Source: Sulfurospirillum sp. (GTDB lineage: Bacteria; Campylobacterota; Campylobacteria; Campylobacterales; Sulfurospirillaceae). Taken from it: 31,237 nucleotides of DNA. The notes below the pieces were generated by a model. The model was not told the DNA's origin and searched no databases. It saw only the letters and a list, made by a program, of their open reading frames with translations. A program made the position numbers and the translations under genes. How positions within the stretch are numbered: position 1 is the stretch's first letter; every line of letters begins with the position of its first letter. The stretch is from NCBI GenBank assembly GCA_045047115.1, contig JASFYR010000032.1:1-31237 (forward strand), written 5' to 3'. Of this stretch, positions 6,493-31,237 are shown piece after piece.

Positions 6493-7917
6493 ATGAAAGT
6501 TAGATTTGTATTGTTTATATTGGTATTTTTAGTAACAACAGCTTTTTCAAACTGTGAAAATAAATTTTTCTCTTTTAGCGTAAAGGACTCGGGAGGAAGT
6601 GGTATCACCGCGCTTGATATATTGGAAAATATAACAGATGAGTGTAAGATGACCATGATGTTTCAAGATAAAGATGTTAAGCCGATACTTGAGAAAAAAC
6701 TCAACTATATCAATGTAAAAGATTTTTCATTACAAGAGCTTTTAAATCTTCTTTTGAGTGATAGAAATCTTTTTTATACGCTAGATAACAATAAAAAGAT
6801 TTTAAAAATTTCATATCTGAAAACAAAGACATATCTTATAGATTATGTAAGTTTTACGAAAAGAACAAGCACAACAAATAAAACGATAAAAACAGGTTCA
6901 GCCACAGGAGGTAGTGGTGGTGAAGATTCTACGACTATGGATTTTACATCAGATTTTCAGTTTTGGAAAAAGATAGAGTCTCAGATAAACAGTATATTAA
7001 ACAGAAATAGTGAAAATGGAGAAAACAAGGCAAAAGCACTTATAAACCAAGATGCCGGGATGGTGACTGTAACAGGAGATAAAAAACAACTTGATGGTGT
7101 TGAACAATATATAAAAGAGATGATGAAAAGACTCCATAAAGAGATACTTATAGAGGCAAAGCTGATAGAAGTGACCTATGATGGCAGTAAAACAAATGGT
7201 GTTGATTGGAGTAAGTTTGAGTTGGGCATAAATGGCACAAGTGATGCTTTAAGACAGAGAACAGCCGGAGTACTGACAAGTGGCTTTAGAAAACCAAACT
7301 ATTTGATCGGATATAATTTTTCAATGAATGGATTGATCAAGTTTTTGAAATCTCAAGGTGATGTTAAAATTGTGTCGAACCCAAAAGTTATGACTCTTAA
7401 CAATCAGCCAGCGGTTATAAATGTCGGAACGGAAGTAAACTACAGATATAATGACGGGAGTACAACCTCTGTCTCTAACGGCACAACAACGACAACCCCA
7501 AGCTATACAACCGACTCAACTTTTGTGGGAGTGACACTGGATATTACTCCTCAGGTAACGAGTGATAATTTTATAATGCTAAAAATCAATCCGATTGTCA
7601 GTGAAATTTCAAAAGAGCATATAGACAGTAACGGAGTGCCATTTTTGGCACCGGATATCAAGATAAAACAACTCTCTTCTGTGGTGAAAGTAAAAGACGG
7701 CAATAAAGTGCTCATAGGAGGATTGATAAATAAAAACACACACACTACTGTGACATCTGTTCCTCTGCTTTCTTCTATCCCGCTTATAGGACAAGCTTTC
7801 AAAAGCGATGCAAAAGTTGTTACAAACAGCGAACTTATAATCGTACTCATCCCGCATATCGTAGATGTAAACAAAAAACCGAATTTAAGTGATTTTGATA
7901 TCTCTGTTAAGAATTGA
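6493..7917 (+). CDS. mshL: Secretin, MSHA-type MshL / CtsD
   Basis: Secretin motifs 'ILIEAKLIEV', 'GVDWS', 'SNPKVMTLNNQPAVI', 'VPLLSSIPLIGQAF' and 'SELIIVLIPHI'. Confidence 0.92.
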   Translation: MKVRFVLFILVFLVTTAFSNCENKFFSFSVKDSGGSGITALDILENITDECKMTMMFQDKDVKPILEKKLNYINVKDFSLQELLNLLLSDRNLFYTLDNNKKILKISYLKTKTYLIDYVSFTKRTSTTNKTIKTGSATGGSGGEDSTTMDFTSDFQFWKKIESQINSILNRNSENGENKAKALINQDAGMVTVTGDKKQLDGVEQYIKEMMKRLHKEILIEAKLIEVTYDGSKTNGVDWSKFELGINGTSDALRQRTAGVLTSGFRKPNYLIGYNFSMNGLIKFLKSQGDVKIVSNPKVMTLNNQPAVINVGTEVNYRYNDGSTTSVSNGTTTTTPSYTTDSTFVGVTLDITPQVTSDNFIMLKINPIVSEISKEHIDSNGVPFLAPDIKIKQLSSVVKVKDGNKVLIGGLINKNTHTTVTSVPLLSSIPLIGQAFKSDAKVVTNSELIIVLIPHIVDVNKKPNLSDFDISVKN

Positions 7918-7919
7918 TT

Positions 7920-8717
7920 ATGAGAGATTATGAAAAAGCCAAAGAGTTATTTAGAGATATCATAGATGCAAAATACTATTTTGACAGTACAAGTGCAGAG
8001 GTAGCAAGATATAAGATTGAAAATGCTATCGAAGAGAGAAATGCTCCTTTGATATTTCTCATAGGTGATCCCGGAGTCGGAAAAAGCTATATTTTAAAAC
8101 TGATAAGCTTGGAATTGGAAAAAAAATCACTCAGTATATTTATAGATCATCCTTTTTTTGACAAGAGGGATTTGCTGAAAATTTTATATGAAGCTAAAAA
8201 CTTAGAGTTTGATAAAAATATAAATTTTAATGAATTAAAAGAAAAACTGCTAGAACTCTACAGGGACGATAAACATACTATTTTTATAGATGAAGCACAG
8301 CTCCTAAATGAGGAGCAGTTTGAGCTCATAAGGATACTTGGAGACACAAAAATTTTTCAATTTGTTCTCTCGATGCACAAAGAAGAGGGGAGTGCAATAC
8401 TTGAGAAGAAGCACTTTAAATCAAGAACAAAGGTTGTTGTTGAGTATGGCAGGCTTCATCACAGTGAAGTTTACAGATATATACAAAGCACACTCCTTTT
8501 GGAAAATCATTTTGAAATATCCCAAATGTTATCTGTCAAAAATGCCAAGATAGTTACCAAATACTGCCTGGGCAATTTTAGGACTGTAAAAAAGTTCATC
8601 TATTCGCTATTGACTCTACTGGAGTATGCAAAGAAAAACGGACTGAGAAAATACTGCAATATAAATGGATGTCTGCTAAAGATGAGTGCTCTGGATATTG
8701 GGGTTATTCATGACTGA
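7920..8717 (+). CDS. ExeA/MshM/CtsP-like AAA ATPase
   Basis: Walker A GDPGVGKS and Walker B IFIDEAQ; follows the secretin. ATG at 7920 (TTG at 7914 is an alternative). Confidence 0.8.
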   Translation: MRDYEKAKELFRDIIDAKYYFDSTSAEVARYKIENAIEERNAPLIFLIGDPGVGKSYILKLISLELEKKSLSIFIDHPFFDKRDLLKILYEAKNLEFDKNINFNELKEKLLELYRDDKHTIFIDEAQLLNEEQFELIRILGDTKIFQFVLSMHKEEGSAILEKKHFKSRTKVVVEYGRLHHSEVYRYIQSTLLLENHFEISQMLSVKNAKIVTKYCLGNFRTVKKFIYSLLTLLEYAKKNGLRKYCNINGCLLKMSALDIGVIHD

Positions 8718-9450
8718 CAGGGCATTTGAAGATTTACAAAAAAGATGTAAAAAGATGGGTATTAAAAAATTTATGAAGATAGTTTTGTCTGTTTTTTTAC
8801 TTTTTTTAACTGTGATCTTTTTATGCTTTGTATATATTAAGATAAACAGTATAGAGCCAAAAAAAAGTGTTATTAGGCAAAAAAAAGTTAAAATAATCAA
8901 AAAAAATGTGTCAAGCACAACTCTCAAACAAGAAAAATCATTTAAGCCAAAAAATATACCAAAAATTAAAATTCCTCAAAAAGAGAAAAAAGATGATTAT
9001 AATACAGTAATTCTAAAGCCTACAATCATAATTCCCAAAATAAAAACTTCGCAAATGCAGCAGGTGCAAAATCTAAAACCCAAGATTGTTAAAAAAATAG
9101 AACCGGAAAAAAAGGTACAAAAAGAGAGAAAAAAAATAATTATACAAGTGCGGTCTTTAAGAGATGAAGCATCTTTGTTGAAGGAAAACAAGACTAGTGA
9201 AAGTTTTCAAAGCACTTTAAATCTTTCTGAGTATTATCTTAAGAAATCCAAATATGAAAAAGCAATCAATTGGTCGAAAAAAGCAAATCACTATAAACCA
9301 TCCTCTTTTAAGCCGTGGTTGATTTATGCAAAGGCAAAGATAAAGCAGGGTAAAAAAAGTGAAGCCGCAAAAGCAGTGGAGACATTTTTGTCATATTTTA
9401 GCTCGCCTGATGCGCAAAAGTTTTTATATGAAATAAAAGGTAAAAAATGA
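8710..9450 (+). CDS. MshN/CtsX-like membrane-anchored TPR protein
   Basis: TM helix, Lys/Pro-rich linker and C-terminal TPR-like helices (YYLKKSKYEKAINWS...PWLIYAKA). The ATG at 8710 overlaps the upstream gene end. Confidence 0.65.
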   Translation: MTDRAFEDLQKRCKKMGIKKFMKIVLSVFLLFLTVIFLCFVYIKINSIEPKKSVIRQKKVKIIKKNVSSTTLKQEKSFKPKNIPKIKIPQKEKKDDYNTVILKPTIIIPKIKTSQMQQVQNLKPKIVKKIEPEKKVQKERKKIIIQVRSLRDEASLLKENKTSESFQSTLNLSEYYLKKSKYEKAINWSKKANHYKPSSFKPWLIYAKAKIKQGKKSEAAKAVETFLSYFSSPDAQKFLYEIKGKK

Positions 9451-9983
9451 AAACAATTACCACTTTTTTTCTAGTTTTTTACTCTTTGGTATATGCGTAT
9501 AGTAAAAAAGAGTTGATAAGTGACTATCAAAATAAAAATTTTAAAAAAGTATGTATAGACGGAGCGATTTCTGATAGTAAAGATGAAGCTATATTGTCTC
9601 TGGTAGGAAATGCCTGTTTGAAAATAGACGCCATAAATCCACTGGGAATTATAGTAAAAAGACTCGTATCAACTCCAAAATATAGAGAAAATGCATCCTA
9701 TTTTGCCACTATCTTGTTACAAAAAAAACTGATTTATCAATTTATGAATGATGGAATTGATTTGAAGAGCATAAGACTGCCAAGAACATCAAATATACTT
9801 TCAGTTGTATTTGAAAATATTATTAAAAAAAATTATAGAGTTATAGATAGAAACAAAAACAAAATAGAGATAAGTATTGGAAATAAAAAGTATATTCTTT
9901 GGCGTTCAAATGATAATCCACCCAAAGTTTTTATAGATGAATACAAAGATGGAATTTTATTAAAAACACATTGGTATCTATAA
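9447..9983 (+). CDS. Exported hypothetical protein
   Basis: 178-aa ORF with a Sec-type signal (…VYA|Y) and two Cys; ATGA-coupled to the upstream gene. Confidence 0.7.
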   Translation: MKTITTFFLVFYSLVYAYSKKELISDYQNKNFKKVCIDGAISDSKDEAILSLVGNACLKIDAINPLGIIVKRLVSTPKYRENASYFATILLQKKLIYQFMNDGIDLKSIRLPRTSNILSVVFENIIKKNYRVIDRNKNKIEISIGNKKYILWRSNDNPPKVFIDEYKDGILLKTHWYL

Positions 9984-10008
9984 AATGAGTAGAAGGACAG
10001 TAAAATGA

Positions 10009-10084
10009 AATTTCTTGGCAAAGCCAAAGCTTTAGTCGCGAGGAATTTTTGCGGAATTCACTTCCGTAAAAAGGGGACAGTAAA
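10009..10084 (+). repeat. Two-hairpin dispersed element, copy 1 (upstream of the GspE/MshE gene)
   Basis: 10028-10079 is identical over 52 bp to the reverse complement of 31143-31194; flanked by the direct repeat GGACAGTAAAATGA (9995-10008 and 10075-10088). Confidence 0.95.
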
Positions 10085-11752
10085 ATGATTCAAAAAAAGA
10101 TACGAATTGGTGATATCCTCATCGAAAAGGGATTTATAGACCAGGACCAATTGATGCTGGCTCTAAAAGAACAAAAAAAGAGTAATTTTGCAAAGAAATT
10201 GGGTCAGTATTTTGTAGATGAAGGTTATATCAGCGAGAGAGCTTTTGCGGAGATTTTAGCTGAGCAGTTAGATATAGAGTTTATCGACCTATACGGTGTC
10301 GAGGTTGATTTTAACTTAATGACAAAATACCCCTTAAATTTACTCAAAAGTTCTTTGGCTGTGCCTTTTTTGGAAGATGAAGAGTTTGTTCATGTAGCAG
10401 TTGTTGATCCACTAGATTATGAATCCATAGAGCTTTTAGAGAGAAATATAGCAACCAAGCCTATAAAGTTGTATGTATCACTAAAAAGTGATGTAAATCA
10501 CATCTTTGAAAGATTTGAGATAATTTCTACAACAAAACTGATAGTTGACAATATAAAAAGAGAGATAGCTACAAATACCTATAAAGCCGATAGTGAACAG
10601 AGTTCAATCATGCAGCTTATAGAACAGATAGTAAAAAGTGCTATCAAAAACAATGCGAGTGATATATATATAGAGCCCTCAGCTTTTAATGTATCTGTTA
10701 GAAGCAGAATAGATGGAATTTTGAGAGAAAATTTTGTGTTTGATATGGATATATATAATGCTTTGGCATCTAGAATCAAGATACTGGGAAATCTGGATAT
10801 CAGTGAAAAAAGAAAATCTCAAGATGGCAGGTTTACCATGACTGTAGAAAATGGTATATATGATTTTAGACTCTCAACTGCTCCGACAATGTTTGGTGAA
10901 TCAATAGCCATGAGAATCTTAGATCAACAAAAGATACTGCTGAAACTTCGTGATTTAGGCATGGAAGAGAGTAATATAAAAACATTTGAAGAGATTTTAA
11001 AGTCACCTTATGGCATCATTTTTGTAACGGGTCCTACAGGAAGCGGAAAAACTACAACACTGTATGCTGCCCTAAATGAAATCAAAAGTATGGAAAACAA
11101 AATGATAACTATAGAAGATCCTATAGAATATCAACTTCCGCTCGCCCAACAGATACAGATAAATGAAAAGATAGATTACTCTTTTGCTGAGGCCTTGAGA
11201 TCTATTTTGAGGCAAGATCCAGATATCATAATGGTTGGTGAAGTGCGAGATAGTGAGACTCTCAATATCGCAGTGCAAGCATCTCTGACAGGGCATCTTG
11301 TATTTACAACACTGCATACAAATGATGCACCAAGTGCAATAACAAGGATGATCCAGATGAATTTGGAGCCATATCTTATCGCTGATTCACTTGTTGGCGT
11401 AATGGCACAAAGACTTGTGAGAAAAATTTGTCCATACTGTAAAAAAGAGCATAGAGTGCCAAAAAATATGTTGGATTCTGTTAAAAAATATCTTCCCTCT
11501 GAGTATAAATTTTTTAAGGGCGAGGGATGTATTAGATGTGGTTTTAGTGGATACAGCGGCAGAACAATGATAAGTGAGATTTTAAAAATCAGCGAAACGA
11601 TATCTCATCTCATATCCATCAACATGAATAAATATGAAATAGCAAGAAAAGCCGAAGAAAATGATGGCTTTGAGCCTATGATGATTGATGGTTTAAAAAA
11701 AGCACTTGCCGGAATAACAACGCTAGAAGAGGTTTTGAGAGTTGCAAAGTAA
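10085..11752 (+). CDS. mshE: Pilus assembly ATPase GspE/PilB/MshE (CtsE) with an MshEN domain
   Basis: Walker A GPTGSGKT, 'TIEDPIEY', 'LRQDPDIIMVGEVRD', His box 'TGHLVFTTLHTND', CxxC...CxxC zinc motif, and N-terminal RIGxxLxxxG...LxxQ. Confidence 0.93.
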   Translation: MIQKKIRIGDILIEKGFIDQDQLMLALKEQKKSNFAKKLGQYFVDEGYISERAFAEILAEQLDIEFIDLYGVEVDFNLMTKYPLNLLKSSLAVPFLEDEEFVHVAVVDPLDYESIELLERNIATKPIKLYVSLKSDVNHIFERFEIISTTKLIVDNIKREIATNTYKADSEQSSIMQLIEQIVKSAIKNNASDIYIEPSAFNVSVRSRIDGILRENFVFDMDIYNALASRIKILGNLDISEKRKSQDGRFTMTVENGIYDFRLSTAPTMFGESIAMRILDQQKILLKLRDLGMEESNIKTFEEILKSPYGIIFVTGPTGSGKTTTLYAALNEIKSMENKMITIEDPIEYQLPLAQQIQINEKIDYSFAEALRSILRQDPDIIMVGEVRDSETLNIAVQASLTGHLVFTTLHTNDAPSAITRMIQMNLEPYLIADSLVGVMAQRLVRKICPYCKKEHRVPKNMLDSVKKYLPSEYKFFKGEGCIRCGFSGYSGRTMISEILKISETISHLISINMNKYEIARKAEENDGFEPMMIDGLKKALAGITTLEEVLRVAK

Positions 11753-13007
11753 ACAAACAGGTATAAAATTTTTTGAGATAGAGTATATATCAAACGGTAA
11801 AAAAAATAAAACAGTACTCTCAAGTCAAAATAAATTTGAAGCTATAAAAGATTTTAAGTCAAAAACTATCGGTGTTTTTCTTGGTATCGAAGAAGTAGCA
11901 GAACCTTTTAGTGTAAAATTAGATCTGCTAAAGAAGTATCTAAAAGATAAACTAAGAGCAAAAAAAATCCCTCTTGAGCCCTATATAGCTTCATTGCGAC
12001 AGATTTCAACGATGCTAAATGCCGGATTACCTATCACCACTTGCTTGAAAGATGTTGTTAAAACTACAGAACACAAAAGACTCAAAGAGATTTTTACTAC
12101 GGTTCTCGAAGAGGTGGAGTCAGGAATAAATCTATCAAATGCATTTATGATATTTGAAGAAGAGGTTGGAACCATATCTATAGCGCTATTTGATTTAGGT
12201 GAAAAAACAGGTACTTTGGATGATTCGATCGGAAAATTAGCAGATATACTCCAAGAAGTCTATGACAATCGAATGAAACTCAAAAAAGCGACCAGATATC
12301 CGATAATAGTAATAGTCGTGATGATTATAGCCTTTTCTGTTGTTTTGACGCTTGTTGTGCCGCAATTTAAAGATATGTTTGATGAGTACAATGCCAATCT
12401 TCCTTTTCCTACAATTTTACTCTTATGGATAGAAAATGCTGTTAGAGAATATGGGGTTTTTGTGATTTTAGGTGCTTTTTTGTTTAGTAGCGCTCTTTCT
12501 TATGCATATAAAAAAAGTGCCAAATTTAAACTCTTGTTCGATAGATATATGTTAAAAGTATATATAGTCGGACAAGTTATATTTCTCTCTATGATTGGCA
12601 GATTTGTGTATGTTTTTGATAGACTCAGTACTTCTGGTATACCTATCATTGACTCACTGAAGACTGCTATTGGTATCGTAGAAAACAGTTATTTAAAAAA
12701 AAGACTAAGAGAGATAATAGATGCTATAGAAGAGGGTAGGAGTCTGACAAATGGTTTTGAAGATACACAGCAGTTTGAAAGTATGATTATTCAAATGATA
12801 AGTGCGGGAGAAAACAGCGGTTCTCTGAGTGGTATGTTAGATAAGATATCAGATATATATAGAAAAAAGTATGCTTATTTAGTGGACAATGTCTCTACTA
12901 TGATTGAACCACTTCTTATCGCTGCAATTGCCGGTTTTGTTTTGCTTCTTGCCCTCGGTATATTTTTGCCTATGTGGTCTATCGCAGAAGCGGTTGGCGG
13001 TACCTGA
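11742..13007 (+). CDS. Platform protein GspF/PilC/MshG (CtsF)
   Basis: 'RQISTMLNAGLP', 'GEKTGTLD', 'YPIIV', 'AGENSGSL' and 'MIEPLL…IFLPMW'; the TTG start is uncertain. Confidence 0.92.
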   Translation: MQSKQTGIKFFEIEYISNGKKNKTVLSSQNKFEAIKDFKSKTIGVFLGIEEVAEPFSVKLDLLKKYLKDKLRAKKIPLEPYIASLRQISTMLNAGLPITTCLKDVVKTTEHKRLKEIFTTVLEEVESGINLSNAFMIFEEEVGTISIALFDLGEKTGTLDDSIGKLADILQEVYDNRMKLKKATRYPIIVIVVMIIAFSVVLTLVVPQFKDMFDEYNANLPFPTILLLWIENAVREYGVFVILGAFLFSSALSYAYKKSAKFKLLFDRYMLKVYIVGQVIFLSMIGRFVYVFDRLSTSGIPIIDSLKTAIGIVENSYLKKRLREIIDAIEEGRSLTNGFEDTQQFESMIIQMISAGENSGSLSGMLDKISDIYRKKYAYLVDNVSTMIEPLLIAAIAGFVLLLALGIFLPMWSIAEAVGGT

Positions 13008-13098
13008 TGGATATGCAAATCGGAACTATAAGTGTTGCAATTTTCAGTGCAATTATACTGGGTATCGTTTTTTGGATTATTAAAAAGATAACAAGTAT

Positions 13099-13689
13099 TT
13101 AATTACAAGTCAAGGCTATATCATAGTTCGCAGGTGTTGTTCCGTTGTTGTCTATAAGTAAGAAATCTCCAACAGATATCTCTTTAGCGTTGTAGTTACA
13201 GTTTTTATCCGGATTTGTATAGAAAGCATATATCCAAAAATCATTTTTATCTGGTTTGTTTGCTATATCGCTACCAGGGGCATTTGTATCGTATTTTACT
13301 CCATTTTGAGGATCACTGGCCGGTCCTGTAAATATAGAGATATTATAATCACTACTGTTTATGGTTTTTTGTCTGTGAAAGTCACTGTTTTTGCCTTTTA
13401 TGACAGCGCCAAAAACATCTCCGTTCTTTGATAGGACATCCGGATATCCCTCAGAGTTTAAAAGAGTTGAGCTTTGGTGATTTCCCCAGGTGAAATCACC
13501 CTCATTTATACTCCACTCTCCATTTGCACTCTCAAGCGCAGTAGCAACTGCCGAGACAGTTGCTATCTCGGCAGATTTTTTTGCGCCATCTTTTATGGAT
13601 GAGAGTTTAGGAACTGCGATAGAAGCAAGTATCCCTATGATAACAATTACAAAGATAAGTTCTACCATTGTAAAGGCTTGTTTACTCAT
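13099..13689 (-). CDS. Type IV pilin-like protein
   Basis: MSKQA|FTMVELIFVIVIIGILASIAVPKL; C-terminal Cys pair. Confidence 0.88.
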   Translation of the reverse strand: MSKQAFTMVELIFVIVIIGILASIAVPKLSSIKDGAKKSAEIATVSAVATALESANGEWSINEGDFTWGNHQSSTLLNSEGYPDVLSKNGDVFGAVIKGKNSDFHRQKTINSSDYNISIFTGPASDPQNGVKYDTNAPGSDIANKPDKNDFWIYAFYTNPDKNCNYNAKEISVGDFLLIDNNGTTPANYDIALTCN

Positions 13690-13693
13690 ATTT

Positions 13694-14443
13694 TTAGAAT
13701 CGAACTTCCAAAACAGTGTTTAGTAGCTGAGCAGTAGTTGCATCAGAGCGAATCATATCCAGATTTCTGATAGCTGCTCCGGCTCCATTTCCGGTAACTA
13801 ACTGTGATGTGCCGTTTAAATCCAACAATCCAACTGAACGAGCAGGGATTATCGTTGGTGATGTGTGTAGCACATATGTTGCAGTTGTGCTTGTTATATT
13901 TACATCAAAATCATTTGGATTAAATACCCACAGATCATTTTTATCAGGGCTTCCCGCTATATCTTCTCCTGGGATATCGCTTGAGACACTAACCCCTGTT
14001 ACAGGATCAGATGCAGGCCCAACTAAAAAAAGCACATCATTTGAAGGACTTACATTTGTACTCCAATTGACGATATCGGTACCGCTTGAGCCAGCCCCAC
14101 CAACTATCCTAAAGTGTTCACCTTTTTTTAGGATATGGTGTAATACTTTGTGTGGGATATTTACATTTTGATTGTAAGCTTCAGTAGCAGTATATCTTGA
14201 ACTGAAACCACCGTCAGATATATTTACATCGTGCCATAGGACATTTGTATCTCCATAGTCCGAGAGTCTAAACTCTACTGCAGCTGTTATCGTGCCATCA
14301 AGGCTAGACATAGTTGCTAACTCACTATTTACCTTGGCCTTGTTTCTTATTCCGCTGAATTTTGGTAGTGCGGTTGCTGCCAAAATTCCTATAATTATGA
14401 TTACGAAAATCAACTCTACCATTGTGAAACCACTTCTTTTCAT
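13694..14443 (-). CDS. Type IV pilin-like protein (candidate major pilin)
   Basis: MKRSG|FTMVELIFVIIIIGILAATALPKF; strong AGGAG RBS; first gene after its own promoter region. Confidence 0.88.
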   Translation of the reverse strand: MKRSGFTMVELIFVIIIIGILAATALPKFSGIRNKAKVNSELATMSSLDGTITAAVEFRLSDYGDTNVLWHDVNISDGGFSSRYTATEAYNQNVNIPHKVLHHILKKGEHFRIVGGAGSSGTDIVNWSTNVSPSNDVLFLVGPASDPVTGVSVSSDIPGEDIAGSPDKNDLWVFNPNDFDVNITSTTATYVLHTSPTIIPARSVGLLDLNGTSQLVTGNGAGAAIRNLDMIRSDATTAQLLNTVLEVRF

Positions 14444-19286: not shown

Positions 19287-21674
19287 GTGAAAGTAGAAGT
19301 ATCTCGTAGAAGATTTCTTCAAGGCAGTGTTGCGCTTAGCATCATAGGTGGAACTACATTTAGTGCTAGCAAGCTTTTGTCTGAAGACGAACACGACCGA
19401 GGAAAGATGCAGCTGATAACCAGAACTACAAACATAAAAGCCAAAAAAGTACCATTTTTGTGCGGTATGTGTGTAAATAAATGTGCAGGAATTGCCAGAG
19501 TAGAGAAGGGTGTTGTGGTAAAACTGGACCCAAATCCGTATTTTCCAAAGTCAAGAAATATGCTTTGCCCCAGAGGAAATGCCGGAATTCAAACTCTTTA
19601 TGATCCAGATCGTCTAAAATATCCACTAGTTAGAGTTGGTGAAAGAGGTGATGGTAAATACAAAAGAGTTTCATGGGATGAGGCTTATAATGCTATACTG
19701 CATGGAACAGATAAGTTTAAAGGTCTGCTTCAAATTTTAGATGAAGAGAAAGACAACCGCTCCACTATAGGTTATTGTAATGGAGAGGGTCTGTCTAAAG
19801 AGGGCTTTGAAGAGTTGATGGGATTAAAAATCGGTACTCCAAACTATGTTGATGAGATTAGTATCTGCCTGGAGACGGTTTTGGGGGCTTATTCAGCTAC
19901 TATCGGTGCTTACGGAGAAGCTGATATGAATAATGCCGATTATGTTATCATAGCCGGTGCAAATAGAGCCGAAGCTATAATTACTCCAGATACTATGGAT
20001 ATGTTTAAAAGAAGCAAAGGAAGGGGACTAAAAACTATAGTTTTGGATCCAAGATTTACAAATACCGCAGCAAAAGCTGATAGATGGTATGCAGTCAATC
20101 CGGGAACTGATCTTGCCTTTGTTTTAGCTTTAACATATGTTGTGTTTAATGAAAATCTGTATGACAAAGAGTTTGCTAAAAAATATATGGTTGGGTATGA
20201 GGATTATAAAAATCATGTATTAAAAAATGGCTATACCCCTGAATGGGCACAAAAGATTACAAATATTCCTGCGGGTGAGATATATAAGACAGCAAGAGAG
20301 TTTATGGCTGCCCAGCACCCTATATACTATCAGGGAAGAAGAAGTGTTTTTGCCAAAAATGACTTTCAGCTTCGTCGAGCACAGGGTATCTTTCAGGGTT
20401 TAAGTGGAAATCTTGATAAAAAAGGCGGTATCATATATGGTAAAAAGTTAATACTTCCAAAAGAAGATGTTAATGCCCCGATGTATGCTCAAGCCCAAGA
20501 TAGATTTGATAAAGACGGAATTGCTATATTTGCTGACAAAACCGGCTCTTGGATTGTCTTTAGAAACATGGTATTAGAGAAAAAAAATCCATACCCGATA
20601 AGAGCTATGTTTATGAGAAAACATAATCCGATGTCAGGTGTTCCAAATACTGCCAAAACACAAGAGTTTCTTAAAAAGATGGATTTAAATGTAATGATAG
20701 ATATACTTCCTAGTGATACTACAATGTTTTGTGATGTTGTATTGCCTGAAGCTTCATATCTTGAGAGAACTTCACCAGTTGCAAGCTACGGTTTTCTTGA
20801 GCCGGCTATCGTTCAGAGAAAAGCTGCAATCAAACCACTTTATGAGTCTAAAACTCCTGAGGTTATCTATAAAGAATTGGCAGAAAAACTCACAAAACCA
20901 CTTTGGGAAAATACTCTGAAACATGATAAGGATGTCCAGAGCGATACAAAAGGCATGAAGCCAAAAGAGCTGGCTAAATATTATAAAGAGAATGGTTTTG
21001 ACTTAGCTGATGCCTGGAAAAAAACAGTAGAAGAAGAAAACAGAGAGAAGGTTGAAAAGGCCTTTGGAGAAGAGGCATGGAAAACTTTGGAAAGCAAAGG
21101 TGTTTACTATCCAAATATGGAAAAATACCATAAACAGTTAAATCCAAATGAGTACCGATATTACCCTGAAGATAAGAAAAATTACACAACAAAAGGTGAT
21201 AAGCTAAAAGTTATATGTGATTTTAAAAACTTGGCCAAAAAAGGTGTTGATCCTATGCCTACATGGAAAGATGAGTATGCTTTTAGTGTTCCAGACGGCA
21301 AGTTTAGACTTGTCACAGGAAGACATGCGCAATTTACTCAAAGTGGCACTACAAACAATATGATGCTAAGAGATTTGATTCCTACAAACTATATCTGGAT
21401 AAATAAAAGAGTAGCTAAAAAGAGAGGTATAGAGTTTGGTGATAAAGTTGAGGTCAGAAGTAGTGTCGGCAAGATTCATATAAAAGCATATCCGACAGAA
21501 AAAATAGCACCGAATATGATATTTATGCTCCATGGTTTCGGAGGAAGCAGTAAAGAGATGGAGATGGCATATGGCAATGGCGGTAATGATGCGGCAATCA
21601 TAGAAGATAAGATTGAGCCTGTATATGGAGCTGCTGTTATGCACGAGACAAATGTTGAAGTAAGGAAGGTGTAA
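19287..21674 (+). CDS. psrA: Molybdopterin oxidoreductase catalytic subunit, polysulfide/thiosulfate reductase (PsrA/PhsA) family
   Basis: Tat signal SRRRFLQ, 4Fe-4S motif CGMCVNKC…CPRG, 'LYDPDRLKYPL', candidate Mo-ligand Cys in 'SICL' and 'DVVLPEASYLER'. The substrate cannot be determined from sequence alone. Confidence 0.8.
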   Translation: MKVEVSRRRFLQGSVALSIIGGTTFSASKLLSEDEHDRGKMQLITRTTNIKAKKVPFLCGMCVNKCAGIARVEKGVVVKLDPNPYFPKSRNMLCPRGNAGIQTLYDPDRLKYPLVRVGERGDGKYKRVSWDEAYNAILHGTDKFKGLLQILDEEKDNRSTIGYCNGEGLSKEGFEELMGLKIGTPNYVDEISICLETVLGAYSATIGAYGEADMNNADYVIIAGANRAEAIITPDTMDMFKRSKGRGLKTIVLDPRFTNTAAKADRWYAVNPGTDLAFVLALTYVVFNENLYDKEFAKKYMVGYEDYKNHVLKNGYTPEWAQKITNIPAGEIYKTAREFMAAQHPIYYQGRRSVFAKNDFQLRRAQGIFQGLSGNLDKKGGIIYGKKLILPKEDVNAPMYAQAQDRFDKDGIAIFADKTGSWIVFRNMVLEKKNPYPIRAMFMRKHNPMSGVPNTAKTQEFLKKMDLNVMIDILPSDTTMFCDVVLPEASYLERTSPVASYGFLEPAIVQRKAAIKPLYESKTPEVIYKELAEKLTKPLWENTLKHDKDVQSDTKGMKPKELAKYYKENGFDLADAWKKTVEEENREKVEKAFGEEAWKTLESKGVYYPNMEKYHKQLNPNEYRYYPEDKKNYTTKGDKLKVICDFKNLAKKGVDPMPTWKDEYAFSVPDGKFRLVTGRHAQFTQSGTTNNMMLRDLIPTNYIWINKRVAKKRGIEFGDKVEVRSSVGKIHIKAYPTEKIAPNMIFMLHGFGGSSKEMEMAYGNGGNDAAIIEDKIEPVYGAAVMHETNVEVRKV

Positions 21675-21676
21675 TC

Positions 21677-22240
21677 ATGGCAAATTATGGAATGGCATTA
21701 GATTATAAAAATTGTATAAATTGTAAAGCATGTGAAGTTGCCTGTAAAGAGGAAAATGGAGTCCAGCTTGGAGCAGATAAACATCGTATATGGGTTGGAG
21801 TTAAGGAGATAGAGGGTTTGTGGCCAAATCTTAACATTGCCTCCAGTACCTTTGAACCTAGCCAATGTCAACAGTGTGAAAATGCACCTTGCCAGGAAGT
21901 TTGTCCTACTCAGGCTACTCACTATACAAAAGATGGCGTCGTGATGGTTGACGCAGATAAGTGTATCTTGTGTAGTTATTGTATGGAGGCTTGCCCTTAT
22001 GATGCAAGGTATGTGAAAGAGGATACGATGACAGTTGATAAGTGTACTTTTTGTAGTGATACAAGACTTCTCCGTGGTGAAACTACTACAGCTTGTCAGG
22101 CAACCTGTCCTACCAAGGTTAGAACTTTTGGTGATTTGGATGATCCAAACAGTGAGATTAGCATACTTTTGATGCATCGTGAGCATCGCACGCTTAAATC
22201 ACATCTTGGCACAAAGCCAAAACTATTTTATTTGATATAA
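21677..22240 (+). CDS. psrB: 4Fe-4S electron-transfer subunit (PsrB/NrfC family)
   Basis: Four Cys clusters: CINCKACEVAC, CQQCENAPCQEVCP, CILCSYCMEACP and CTFC…CQATCP. Confidence 0.88.
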   Translation: MANYGMALDYKNCINCKACEVACKEENGVQLGADKHRIWVGVKEIEGLWPNLNIASSTFEPSQCQQCENAPCQEVCPTQATHYTKDGVVMVDADKCILCSYCMEACPYDARYVKEDTMTVDKCTFCSDTRLLRGETTTACQATCPTKVRTFGDLDDPNSEISILLMHREHRTLKSHLGTKPKLFYLI

Positions 22241-22250
22241 GGAGGCAGGT

Positions 22251-23462
22251 ATGTTTGCATTAGCCGAAAAAGGTATGAAACAGATAGAAAAATTCATACC
22301 GATGAGACACACAGATATGAGAGAGTTATTGAATTTTAAAAAAACACCACTGAATCTTTTGGTAGCATTTACTACACTTGTATTCCTTGTACTTTTTGTG
22401 GTGGGGGCTACAAATTATCTTATACACGGACATCATGCTTACGGGGTTACCAGAGAGCATCCCTGGGGACTTATGATTGCGATGTATATATTTTTCGTTG
22501 TAAGTTCTACCGGGCTTTGTATCATGTCAGCAATTGGGCATGTTTTTGAAGTAAAAGTTTTGGAGCCATTTGCTAAAAGAGCAATTCACGGAGCTCTGGT
22601 GACTTTACTCAGTGGCTTTGTTGTTATATTTTTAGAGATAGGTCATCCTCTTAAAATGATGATTTACAACACAATCAGCCCGGGTCTGACTTCAGCTATA
22701 TGGGGTATGGGTGTTTTATATTCACTCTATCTTATATTTATTGTTATAGAGTTTTTCTTTTTGCTTAGACTTGATCACAAGTGGGCAAAGAGATTTGGTA
22801 TATTTGGTTTGGTTGTGGGAGTTGCAGCTCACTCGAACCTTGGAGCGGTATTTGGATTTTTAGTGGCTCGTCCAGTGGCGAACGGTATCTATTATCCGCT
22901 TTACTTTATACTCTCGGCCATGGTAACAGGATGTTATCTTATCTTTTTGATGTATGGATTTAAGTATAAATTGGATTTTCCGCCTGAAATGCAAAAAACT
23001 CTGATAGCCATGGGTAAAATTTTGGGTTTACTGTTGGCAATTTTACTATTTTTTGAGATTTGGAGAATGTTGACGGCTATATATGGTGGTATGTATGATA
23101 GAGCTGCAACTGCGATGCATATACTAAAATCTTCACCATTTTTAATAGGTGAGATTTTACTAGGGATTCTAATACCTTTTGCTGTCATATTGTTTAGTAA
23201 TGCCAAAGCTATTAAAACTATGGTTTTTGCATCTTTTGGCGGTATGATAGGTATATTTTTTATGAGATATGATTTAGTTCATGATACGCAACTGTTTCCT
23301 ATGCAGACTCTAAAGATAAGAGAGTATCAACTTCCGCCTTCTTTTATAGAGTACACTCCCAGTATGACTGAGATTTTTATAGCATTAGGTGCCATTGGTA
23401 TTGCGATTACACTTTATTATATAGGTGATAAAATTTTATATTTGGAAACTGATCCAGATTAG
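22251..23462 (+). CDS. psrC: NrfD/PsrC-family membrane anchor
   Basis: Polytopic membrane protein with 'PWGLMIAMYIFF', 'EIGHP' and 'FMRYD'; follows the A and B subunits; AAGGAGG RBS. Confidence 0.85.
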   Translation: MFALAEKGMKQIEKFIPMRHTDMRELLNFKKTPLNLLVAFTTLVFLVLFVVGATNYLIHGHHAYGVTREHPWGLMIAMYIFFVVSSTGLCIMSAIGHVFEVKVLEPFAKRAIHGALVTLLSGFVVIFLEIGHPLKMMIYNTISPGLTSAIWGMGVLYSLYLIFIVIEFFFLLRLDHKWAKRFGIFGLVVGVAAHSNLGAVFGFLVARPVANGIYYPLYFILSAMVTGCYLIFLMYGFKYKLDFPPEMQKTLIAMGKILGLLLAILLFFEIWRMLTAIYGGMYDRAATAMHILKSSPFLIGEILLGILIPFAVILFSNAKAIKTMVFASFGGMIGIFFMRYDLVHDTQLFPMQTLKIREYQLPPSFIEYTPSMTEIFIALGAIGIAITLYYIGDKILYLETDPD

Positions 23463-28792: not shown

Positions 28793-29031
28793 TTCTTTAT
28801 CTCTATCTCATAAGTCTCTATGACTGTATTTGCAAGCAAATCTTCACACATGCTCTTCACTCTTGATAGAGTTTCTTCTTCCTCACCATCCTCTACATCC
28901 AGGATTATCTGCTTCCCAATTCTCACATTTTTAACTTCATTGAATTGAAGAGCCAGAAGTGCATGGTGAACTGCCTTGCCCTGGGGATCTAAAACCCCTT
29001 CTTTTAGTTGTATGTTTACTATAATTTTCAT
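28789..29031 (-). CDS. purS: FGAM synthase subunit PurS
   Basis: 'LKEGVLDPQGKAV', 'VRIGK' and 'LLANTVIE'. Confidence 0.96.
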   Translation of the reverse strand: MKIIVNIQLKEGVLDPQGKAVHHALLALQFNEVKNVRIGKQIILDVEDGEEEETLSRVKSMCEDLLANTVIETYEIEIKK

Positions 29032-29110
29032 TTTATTGTCCCCTTTTCATGGAAGTGAATTCCATAAAAATTCCTCGCGACTGAAGCACGAAGTAAACTT
29101 CTGTATCTTT
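29032..29110 (-). repeat. Two-hairpin dispersed element, copy 2 (diverged), between purC and purS
   Basis: The minus strand reads GAAGTTTACTTC-GT-GCTTCAGTCGCGAGGAATTTTTATGGAATTCACTTCCATGAAAAGGGGACAATAAA-ATG. Confidence 0.93.
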
Positions 29111-29114
29111 CATA

Positions 29115-29829: not shown

Positions 29830-31137
29830 TCATCTCTCCTGTTTTGATTTGGCAATTGATAGTATATTTATGGTGTCAATTGCTGTTTTTAGTTGTATGT
29901 CTTTGAGTATGTCATCTTTTGTTATTACATTTTTATCTTTTTTCTCTATTTTTATCTTCTTTTTTTCTATTTTGTTTAGTTCAACTTCGAGATGTTTTTT
30001 TAACTCTTTCTCTTTTATGATAAAGTCATTAACCTTGTGAGGAACTTTGCCCGCACTCACTACAACATCGGGCTTCACTCCAACAGCCTGTATAGTTCTT
30101 CCACTAGGCAGATAGTATCTTGCGATGGTGAGTCTTAATGCCTCGGTATTGTTGATAGGCAGTATAACCTGCACGCTTCCTTTTCCAAATGTATTAGTTC
30201 CGACAATGATTGCTCTTTTATGATCTTGCAATGAACCACTTACGATTTCACTCGCACTCGCACTTCCTCCATTTACCAAGACTGCCATGGGAACATGAGT
30301 AAGCGTGCTCGAGGAATCTGCATTGTATTTTATATTTTCTTTTTTGTCTCTTCCTTTTTGAGATACGATTATGCCTTTATCAACAAAAATATTCACTAGT
30401 CCTACAGCCTGATTTAAAAGGCCACCCGGATTGTTTCTTAAATCCAGTATAATCCCTTTTACTTTTTTATGTGCAAGAATTGCTTCTTTTGCTTTTTTAA
30501 CCACTTTTTTATCAAAACTTGTAACTCTCAAGTAGAGGATATTGTCTTTTTTTATCATTTTTGTATATACGGAGTCTATTTTTATTATAGCCCTTATTAT
30601 GGTTATTTTAAGAGGTTTACTTAAGCCTTTTCTTACAACTGTGAGAATGATCTTTGTTTTTGGTTTTCCGCGCATATGGCTAACTGCTTCATCAATTGTC
30701 ATATTTAAAGTTGAGAGATCGTTAATTTTAAGAATGATGTCGCCTGCTTTTATGCCTGCTTTATCTGCCGGAGTGCCTTCTATAGGAGAGATAACTGTTA
30801 ATGCTCCGTTTCTCATACCAACTGTGATGCCAAGTCCTCCAAACTCACCGTTTGTTTGGATTTTCATATTTTTAAAACCTTTTTTATCTAAAAATGATGA
30901 GTGAGCATCCAGATTTGACATAAGTCCTGCAATGGACTTGTTTATGATGTTGGTGATATTTATATCATCAACATAGTACTTTTCGATAGTTCCTACAACT
31001 CTTGTATATTTTGCCAATGCAGCCAGTCTGCTAGATTCATTCTCGTTTGATTTTGCAAAAAGAGTTGAAGTCATTAAGATTGTAGCCCCAATTAATGTAG
31101 CTAGAAATCCAAATGTTGCAATTTTTATATGTTTCAT
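29830..31137 (-). CDS. ctpA: C-terminal processing protease (S41A family, PDZ domain)
   Basis: 'LDAHS', PDZ 'FGGLGI', '[11 protein letters not shown]', 'SASASEIV' and 'TFGKGSVQ'. Confidence 0.95.
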
Positions 31138-31237
31138 ATTATTGTCCCCTTTTTACGGAAGTGAATTCCGCAAAAATTCCTCGCGACTAAAGCTACGCCT
31201 TTGGCGAGAAAATTACTATTTATTGTCCCCTTTTTAC
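31138..31237 (-). repeat. Two-hairpin dispersed element, copy 3 plus the truncated end of a tandem copy 4
   Basis: 52-bp identity to copy 1; TATTGTCCCCTTTTTAC occurs at 31140-31156 and again at 31221-31237 (81-bp period, cut by the window end). Confidence 0.95.

Follow-up and report, generated by a model that had tools for sequence, protein, structure and literature searches.

An approximately 80-bp repeat built of two hairpins occurs at 69 loci in the genome of this Sulfurospirillum sp., where it sits in sense orientation at the start codons of unrelated genes. About half of the pooled SD-type copies with a start codon carry an upstream ATG, whose reading frame mostly runs through the repeat to the downstream gene. 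The element apparently represents a widespread family which has escaped cataloguing and which, judged by its description and behaviour, works like the MIRU and REP2 repeats.

The window, i.e., the whole stretch of 31,237 nucleotides that was analysed, corresponds to contig C32 of a 2.14-Mb draft genome (34.8% G+C). As claimed in the initial annotation, it contains three copies of about 80 bp, all co-oriented with the downstream gene and ending just before the ATG of genes encoding a MshE/GspE-type ATPase, PurS and CtpA. Copy 1, on the plus strand at 10005-10087, illustrates the order of the parts: a short hairpin P1 (10012..10029, short stem with an AAA loop), the conserved linker CTTTAGTCGCGAGGAA (10030..10045), a 27-nt hairpin P2 (10046..10072) and an SD-like GGGGAC followed by a spacer and the start codon (10073..10087) of the mshE/gspE-type gene (10085-11752, plus strand). 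Both the 11-bp stem of P2, capped by a TTCAC loop, and the GGGGAC located 12 nt ahead of the ATG are present as reported, and so is the perfect 14-bp direct repeat bracketing the copy (9995-10008 and 10075-10088, period 80), whose left member is probably the retained original SD-ATG of the gene. Together with this upstream ATG the copy forms a 27-codon mini-ORF (10005..10088) whose TGA overlaps the downstream ATG (ATGA, -4 spacing). Copy 2, at the purC-purS junction on the minus strand (29029..29113; P2 at 29070-29044, SD at 29043-29040), is bracketed, again as first described, by a 12-bp direct repeat with one mismatch (period 82), and its mini-ORF of 26 codons (29113-29033) stops one base ahead of the purS ATG. 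Copy 3 precedes ctpA on the same strand (31135..31215; P2 at 31176-31150, SD at 31149-31146) and is crossed by an open frame whose TGA overlaps the ctpA ATG. In each of these three cases, the reading frame that crosses the repeat terminates where the following gene begins. A fourth, supposedly truncated copy (31216..31237, minus strand) is indeed partial in the window, but it is merely the 3' tail of an upstream unit cut by the contig end. Contig C28, which shares 73 identical bases with the end of the window, carries this unit in full, and the ctpA site is therefore an array of at least two units. The complete fourth unit begins with an ATG that is in frame with the open frame of copy 3, and this frame remains open across both units and ends in ATGA. 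The idea that the repeat inserts inside operons does not hold for ctpA, which comes first behind a divergent gap.

An iterated profile search of the genome returned 86 hits, 70 of which are near full length, against none in the reversed genome, and a covariance model search returned 82 matches. The 86 hits correspond to 52 single-unit and 17 multi-unit loci. With ORFs called mechanically and 9 of the 69 loci lacking downstream sequence, 60 loci could be placed: 44 end at a start codon and 13 within 30 nt of one (57/60 within 30 nt of a same-strand start), 2 lie within 120 nt and 1 is found in the RNase P RNA. Among the 48 loci located between two called genes, 43 occupy co-directional gaps, 3 divergent gaps and 2 nominally convergent gaps; the last two are the RNase P RNA and a mis-called rplL, so that true convergent gaps hold none. 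All 43 copies in co-directional gaps are sense and none antisense. This genome-wide tabulation of orientation and distance bears out the proposed docking at gene starts in a single orientation. Replication-strand bias was considered as the cause of this orientation and rejected: 43 of 58 loci lie on the G-rich strand compared with 62% of genes, and as this excess reaches only p=0.06, orientation follows the gene. No copy was found within a coding sequence save for short in-frame N-terminal fusions. The 54 downstream proteins scanned share no common pathway; their genes include secY, infA, rplK, rplL, rplM, rpsG, rpoC, dnaK, clpB and guaA as well as purE, argF, leuB, thrB, hemN, soxX, soxZ, flgG and fliQ. 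Remnants consisting of P1 only lie upstream of full units at G000:C34:28498-28537 and C21:3737-3782 (G000 being this genome) and also on C8 and C33, and are consistent with deletion between short repeated motifs.

Hairpin P2 is constant in this genome, all 65 parsed copies having a best length of 27 nt (the parse covers the hits with intact P2, 21 truncated or degenerate ones among the 86 being left out), while relatives also display 26-nt, 29-nt and long branched forms. Both stems covary. In 24 copies selected for a 4-nt P1 loop, 92% of the cells are paired and 13 of 21 pairs have changed on both sides; in 32 copies from 29 other genomes, aligned by fitting to the model and thus biased towards it, 96% are paired and 16 of 20 pairs show two-sided change. 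The covariation score was reached in none of 500 shuffles. The sense strand of P2 contains 46 G.T against 8 A.C pairs under symmetric scoring. For the copies as a whole, folding favours the sense strand over its complement in 58 of 62 cases with RNA energies and in 51 of 62 with DNA energies. P1 loops are of the GNYA type in 73 copies and of the GNRA type in 23, GNYA-type loops being better suited to folded DNA than to RNA. The linker GT likely pairs with the AC that follows the SD, which would close a purine-rich internal loop; the corresponding positions (29-73 and 30-72) are paired in 96% of cases, without two-sided change. Moreover, covariation links a base of the linker with a base located after P2 (G/G in 166 and T/A in 58 of 233 pooled copies).

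The subtypes comprise some that carry an SD, GGGGAC and GGAGAC, and others that do not, GATGAC and GAAGAC. They are mosaics, with 16 different associations of P1 class, linker type and P2 loop. The proposal that the element escapes polarity by donating its own SD stands in part: SD-type copies end with SD-ATG, but roughly a quarter of the copies are SD-less and lie upstream of the native SD of the gene, and only 1 of 50 GATGAC copies ends in ATG. Where an SD is donated, it is predicted to be unpaired with a probability of 0.62 compared with 0.49 for 150 native starts, using standard energies that are blind to non-canonical pairs.

SD donation as the sole means of escape also overlooks the mini-ORF. 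Among 233 pooled distinct copies, 145 are SD-type with an ATG and 73 of these possess an upstream ATG, the frame of which is open in 66 cases (other frames, 28%); 49 of the 73 mini-ORFs end in an ATGA overlap with the gene start. ATG-to-ATG spacing peaks at 80 nt (22 copies) and 83 nt (31), with troughs at 81 (4), 82 (6) and 84 nt (2), and falls in one frame in 57 of 77 cases, or 40 of 54 when one copy is counted per downstream gene. A 3' part of 55 instead of 56 nt is accompanied by a shift of one nucleotide in the 5' part (Fisher p=2e-6). The p-values for the frame are overstated because the copies are kin, and the first-in-array filter passed some tandem units. Nevertheless, such compensating indels would be hard to obtain without selection on the reading frame. 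The T/C variant of the linker was rejected as a tracker of the frame, with which it shows no significant association (p=0.13).

BLAST detected the element in all 13 genomes of the genus and in 21 of 24 genomes of the family, and the model search in 38 of 121 genomes and 11 of 25 families of the order, where per-genome counts reaching 38 stand for at least 38. Two genus relatives have 90 and 110 copies, whereas a family relative has 3. No copies were obtained from the 22 and 17 genomes of two families with small genomes, which would be the host-associated families. Named records with the full motif are mostly from Sulfurospirillum and other Campylobacterales MAGs; among the matches listed, those outside Campylobacterales lack the P2 stem. 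No exact motif match was found in viral contigs, nor any match to the element in plasmids.

Orthologous junctions carry zero to three units of changing subtype, which supplies the empty sites expected of a mobile element. The purC-purS junction is filled in 5 of 12 genus genomes (1-3 units) and empty in 7, as well as in all 18 genomes outside the genus, and one of the empty sites reads like a filled site from which the unit has been removed together with one of its flanking repeats. The mshE junction is filled in 9 of 13 genomes with at least 5 subtype arrangements, and the ctpA junction in 3 of 13 with three different subtypes, one of these copies being accompanied by a 12-bp duplication covering the first codons. 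On a four-protein tree, some inner branches of which are weak (46-59), the ctpA copy is missing from the sister of this genome, and the carrier furthest removed falls outside the main clade; this would imply several gains or several losses at ctpA. Genes bearing the element in relatives and having a match here are also filled here in 23 of 50 cases, a count that repeats some genes, and in 21 of 42 cases for the top-scoring loci, a set in which one 'empty' site holds a degenerate copy; about 3% would be expected by chance. Since about half of the relatives' sites are common to this genome, many copies are probably old and inherited, and site sharing between species also fits a benefit to the host. 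Sites nevertheless differ between sister species and thus appear to be both inherited and turned over. Apart from these junctions, the lepA-comF gap of genomes with one detected copy (L270, L285) holds an SD-less unit closed by a flanking helix, away from a start codon.

The direct repeats flanking the copies are centred on the ATG and range from 0 to 16 nt. They were rightly noted at first, yet the 14 bp of copy 1 are unusually long, most copies having 4-6 bp. At least 8 matching flank bases were found for 7 of 48 first units compared with 2.1 expected, and the extension on both sides of the ATG exceeds that of shuffles (58 units, some tandem units included). Terminal inverted repeats are absent from the copy alignments, as initially stated. 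Consequently, the element is not a MITE. Of the proposed non-autonomous REP/MITE-like nature, mobility is supported by the empty and filled sites, and no link to a RAYT/IS200-type transposase was found.

We consider it reasonably probable that the element is a dispersed repeat copied by host recombination via the shared SD-ATG and kept only where translation survives. The host's own recombination would copy it to new sites through the short SD-ATG held in common with gene starts, duplicating a variable stretch around the ATG. Because of this duplication, the old SD-ATG would stay upstream and open an ORF of 27-28 codons, the TGA of which would overlap the new ATG, so that translation could be coupled as in MIRUs. 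Where no upstream ATG is present, a copy would rely on its own SD, predicted to be left open by the P2 hairpin, while SD-less subtypes would land upstream of a native SD. Tandem gain and clean loss could both result from recombination or slippage between flanking repeats, subtype turnover from gene conversion, and the RNase P copy from a tolerated insertion at a look-alike end sequence. The weakest step is selection on the hairpins, which likely acts at the mRNA level, where they may keep the SD free and shield the message. Enzyme-free copying alone leaves the fixed 27-nt stem and the invariant linker bases unexplained.

An alternative is a REP/REPIN-like element whose folded single-stranded DNA, from the non-template strand, is cut and copied in trans by a stand-alone Y1 HUH transposase, translation then filtering the survivors. 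Y1 transposase matches were obtained from all 13 genus relatives, from 22 of the 24 family genomes and, three times, from this genome, and the head-to-tail arrays, fixed stem length, DNA-type P1 loops and superior folding of the sense strand under DNA energies are all in keeping with such an enzyme. However, the RAYT/IS200-type mobiliser flanked by copies that the initial annotation suggested looking for did not materialize: RAYTs are flanked by their REPs according to PMC3184786, whereas only 1 of 32 Y1 loci has a copy, some 800 bp from the gene, and linkage was rejected on this basis. Y1 genes are also present in genomes with 0-3 copies, and REPs do not share the strict sense orientation of the element or its placement at start codons. 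We therefore regard this account as clearly less probable than host recombination. One of the three matches in this genome, a stand-alone Y1 transposase-like gene of 262 aa, lies between comF and gyrA (G000:C7:19755-20543, also L086:1450-2238), and similar genes of 220-290 aa are found in nearly all family genomes searched.

IS110 was rejected as mobiliser: this genome has one copy, only 2 of the 13 genus relatives have it and two drafts rich in the element yielded none; the local IS110 ends bear no similarity to the element. IS110 looks like a user of SD sites rather than a mover. Its right ends were observed at an AAGGAG SD directly 3' of copies in two relatives (L069:2330-2388 and L335:39-121), one case being at the clpB site, a pattern like that of IS insertion into REPs. 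The IS110 of this genome (C9:125472-126687) is not beside any copy.

A further, less probable alternative is a cis-acting RNA signal of the host (protein-binding site, RNase III-type processing site or 5' stabiliser) recruited to tune many genes, with spread being secondary. In its favour, the structure persists across 11 of 25 families despite turnover of the sequence, the linker and the SD side covary (G/G 166, T/A 58 of 233), half of the sites are common between species, and the genes behind SD-less copies tend towards ribosomal-type codon use (p=0.04, n=14). SD-type copies exhibit no such codon-use bias, though, and a close relative copes with 3 copies. The downstream genes are without common pathway and sites differ between sister species, and the copy in the RNase P RNA has no gene to regulate. 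A general signal is thus unlikely and so is the gene-specific form, since the downstream genes are unrelated and differ between species, which also makes the shared cis-regulatory RNA offered as an alternative in the initial annotation improbable.

Start-codon docking is not exclusive either, the copy located in the RNase P RNA having been missed at first. It resides in sense orientation in helix P12 (gene at G000:C9:162528-162927, L310), one strand of which is formed by the 3' end of the element. Among 30 RNase P loci fetched, 28 were parsed and 5, from this genome and four relatives (L294, L297, L299 and L304), have a profile match in P12; in two further genes P12 holds a long insert that resembles the element but scores below threshold, and in the others it is short, its length ranging from about 19 to 147 nt across relatives. 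P12 copies occur also in species nearly devoid of other copies, and a divergent second RNase P gene (L317, G003:C1), on a 2.5-kb contig that is possibly a contaminant, has its own. A second P12 helix type, seen in three genomes (L298, L300, L318), shares its stem with the long branched P2 variant that sits before purS and mshE (L010, L043, L044, L047), which suggests that sequence has been exchanged between dispersed copies and the RNase P gene. Because the P12 copy sits where nothing is translated, the end sequence rather than the ribosome may define the target. The least probable of the alternatives, an RNA-derived SINE-like element originating from P12 and reverse transcribed with priming at gene starts, could account for the P12 copies in copy-poor species and in the second gene, for the shared long-P2 helix, for the variable flanking repeats and for 5'-partial units, but this draft, which is 100% complete, yielded no reverse transcriptase (PF00078), P12 is short in the majority of RNase P genes, those of relatives with many copies among them, and the dispersed copies carry no other RNase P sequence. 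It would be a long shot that a bacterial SINE-like element copied from P12 to translation starts installs a two-cistron cassette (leader ORF, hairpin, SD and overlapping stop-start) and so retunes housekeeping operons.

That the family had not been described, as first suspected, agrees with Rfam 15, in which no model was matched at the gathering score, the best E of 0.17 belonging to eukaryotic models without relation to the element. Supplements aside, no description was found in the open full-text literature, including the accessible portions of PMC5217627 and bioRxiv 10.64898/2026.09.22.753630, although the motif tables of PMC11109978, PMC8632094, PMC6429828 and PMC5737381 could hold it. A putative 'three-stem-loop' repeat of Arcobacter was considered as a precedent but lacks support, being absent from the available part of PMC2147049 and from PMC3751612.

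The closest parallel is provided by the MIRUs (Supply et al. 1997), which, in the portions of the sources consulted, are described as repeats of 40-100 bp in tens of copies inside polycistronic messages, with no known transposase (PMC3184786, PMC12548453), which insert at start codons and whose internal ORF is coupled to the gene with a spacing of -4 (PMC12548453). The present element resembles them in size, copy number, polycistronic setting, empty and filled sites, tandem number variation and absence of a known transposase, and above all in start-codon insertion with a coupled internal ORF (49 of 73 mini-ORFs, 40 of 54 per gene). As far as those portions allow comparison, it differs in its phylum, its A+T-richness, its own SD, its two covarying stems of set length, its SD-less subtype and its RNase P RNA copy; MIRU ends carry tetranucleotide direct repeats, whereas here 0-16 nt are repeated around the ATG. 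Neisseria REP2 and Borrelia IR-A/IR-B likewise lie directly upstream of genes without terminal inverted repeats and combine two stem-loops, an RBS and an ATG, as do 145 of the 233 pooled copies here (accessible text of PMC3184786). In that description they are longer (120-180 bp, against 80 bp here); our element forms tandem arrays, has no co-regulated gene set and may lack an internal promoter, native -10-like boxes lying upstream of it at clpB and ctpA. REP, BIME and REPIN-RAYT systems share with it short structured repeats, head-to-tail arrays and an IS110-family target, but the present copies keep one orientation (43 sense, 0 antisense) at gene starts, avoid convergent gaps and do not flank Y1 genes. 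It is further distinguished from MITEs by flanking repeats of variable length and by its lack of resemblance to the local IS110 ends, besides having no terminal inverted repeats. Rickettsia palindromic elements insert into RNase P RNA and thus offer a precedent for a structured repeat tolerated inside a stable RNA. They are among the families listed in the accessible part of PMC3184786; unlike them, the present element is not a single long palindrome and its copies in coding sequences are only short N-terminal fusions.

The family would stand as an independent counterpart of MIRUs that is rich in A+T. Selection for translational coupling would have left a clean evolutionary signature in it, namely the 80/83-nt spacing with compensating indels, and empty/filled pairs are numerous. 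Owing to this signature and these pairs, the homing of transposase-less repeats to start codons and their escape from polarity become testable, while the P12 copy links the repeat to a stable RNA. The arrays break assemblies (19 of 69 loci lie at contig ends) and are possible typing markers.

The window also contains an MSHA-type pilus cluster (6493-14443), in which two pilin-like genes run on the opposite strand, and an operon of the thiosulfate/polysulfide reductase-like kind (19287-23462); both appear ordinary. Other short repeats, unrelated to the element and with 7-10 self-matches each, were noticed at G000:C21:66300, C7:14900, C9:132700, C9:157200 and C28:3000.
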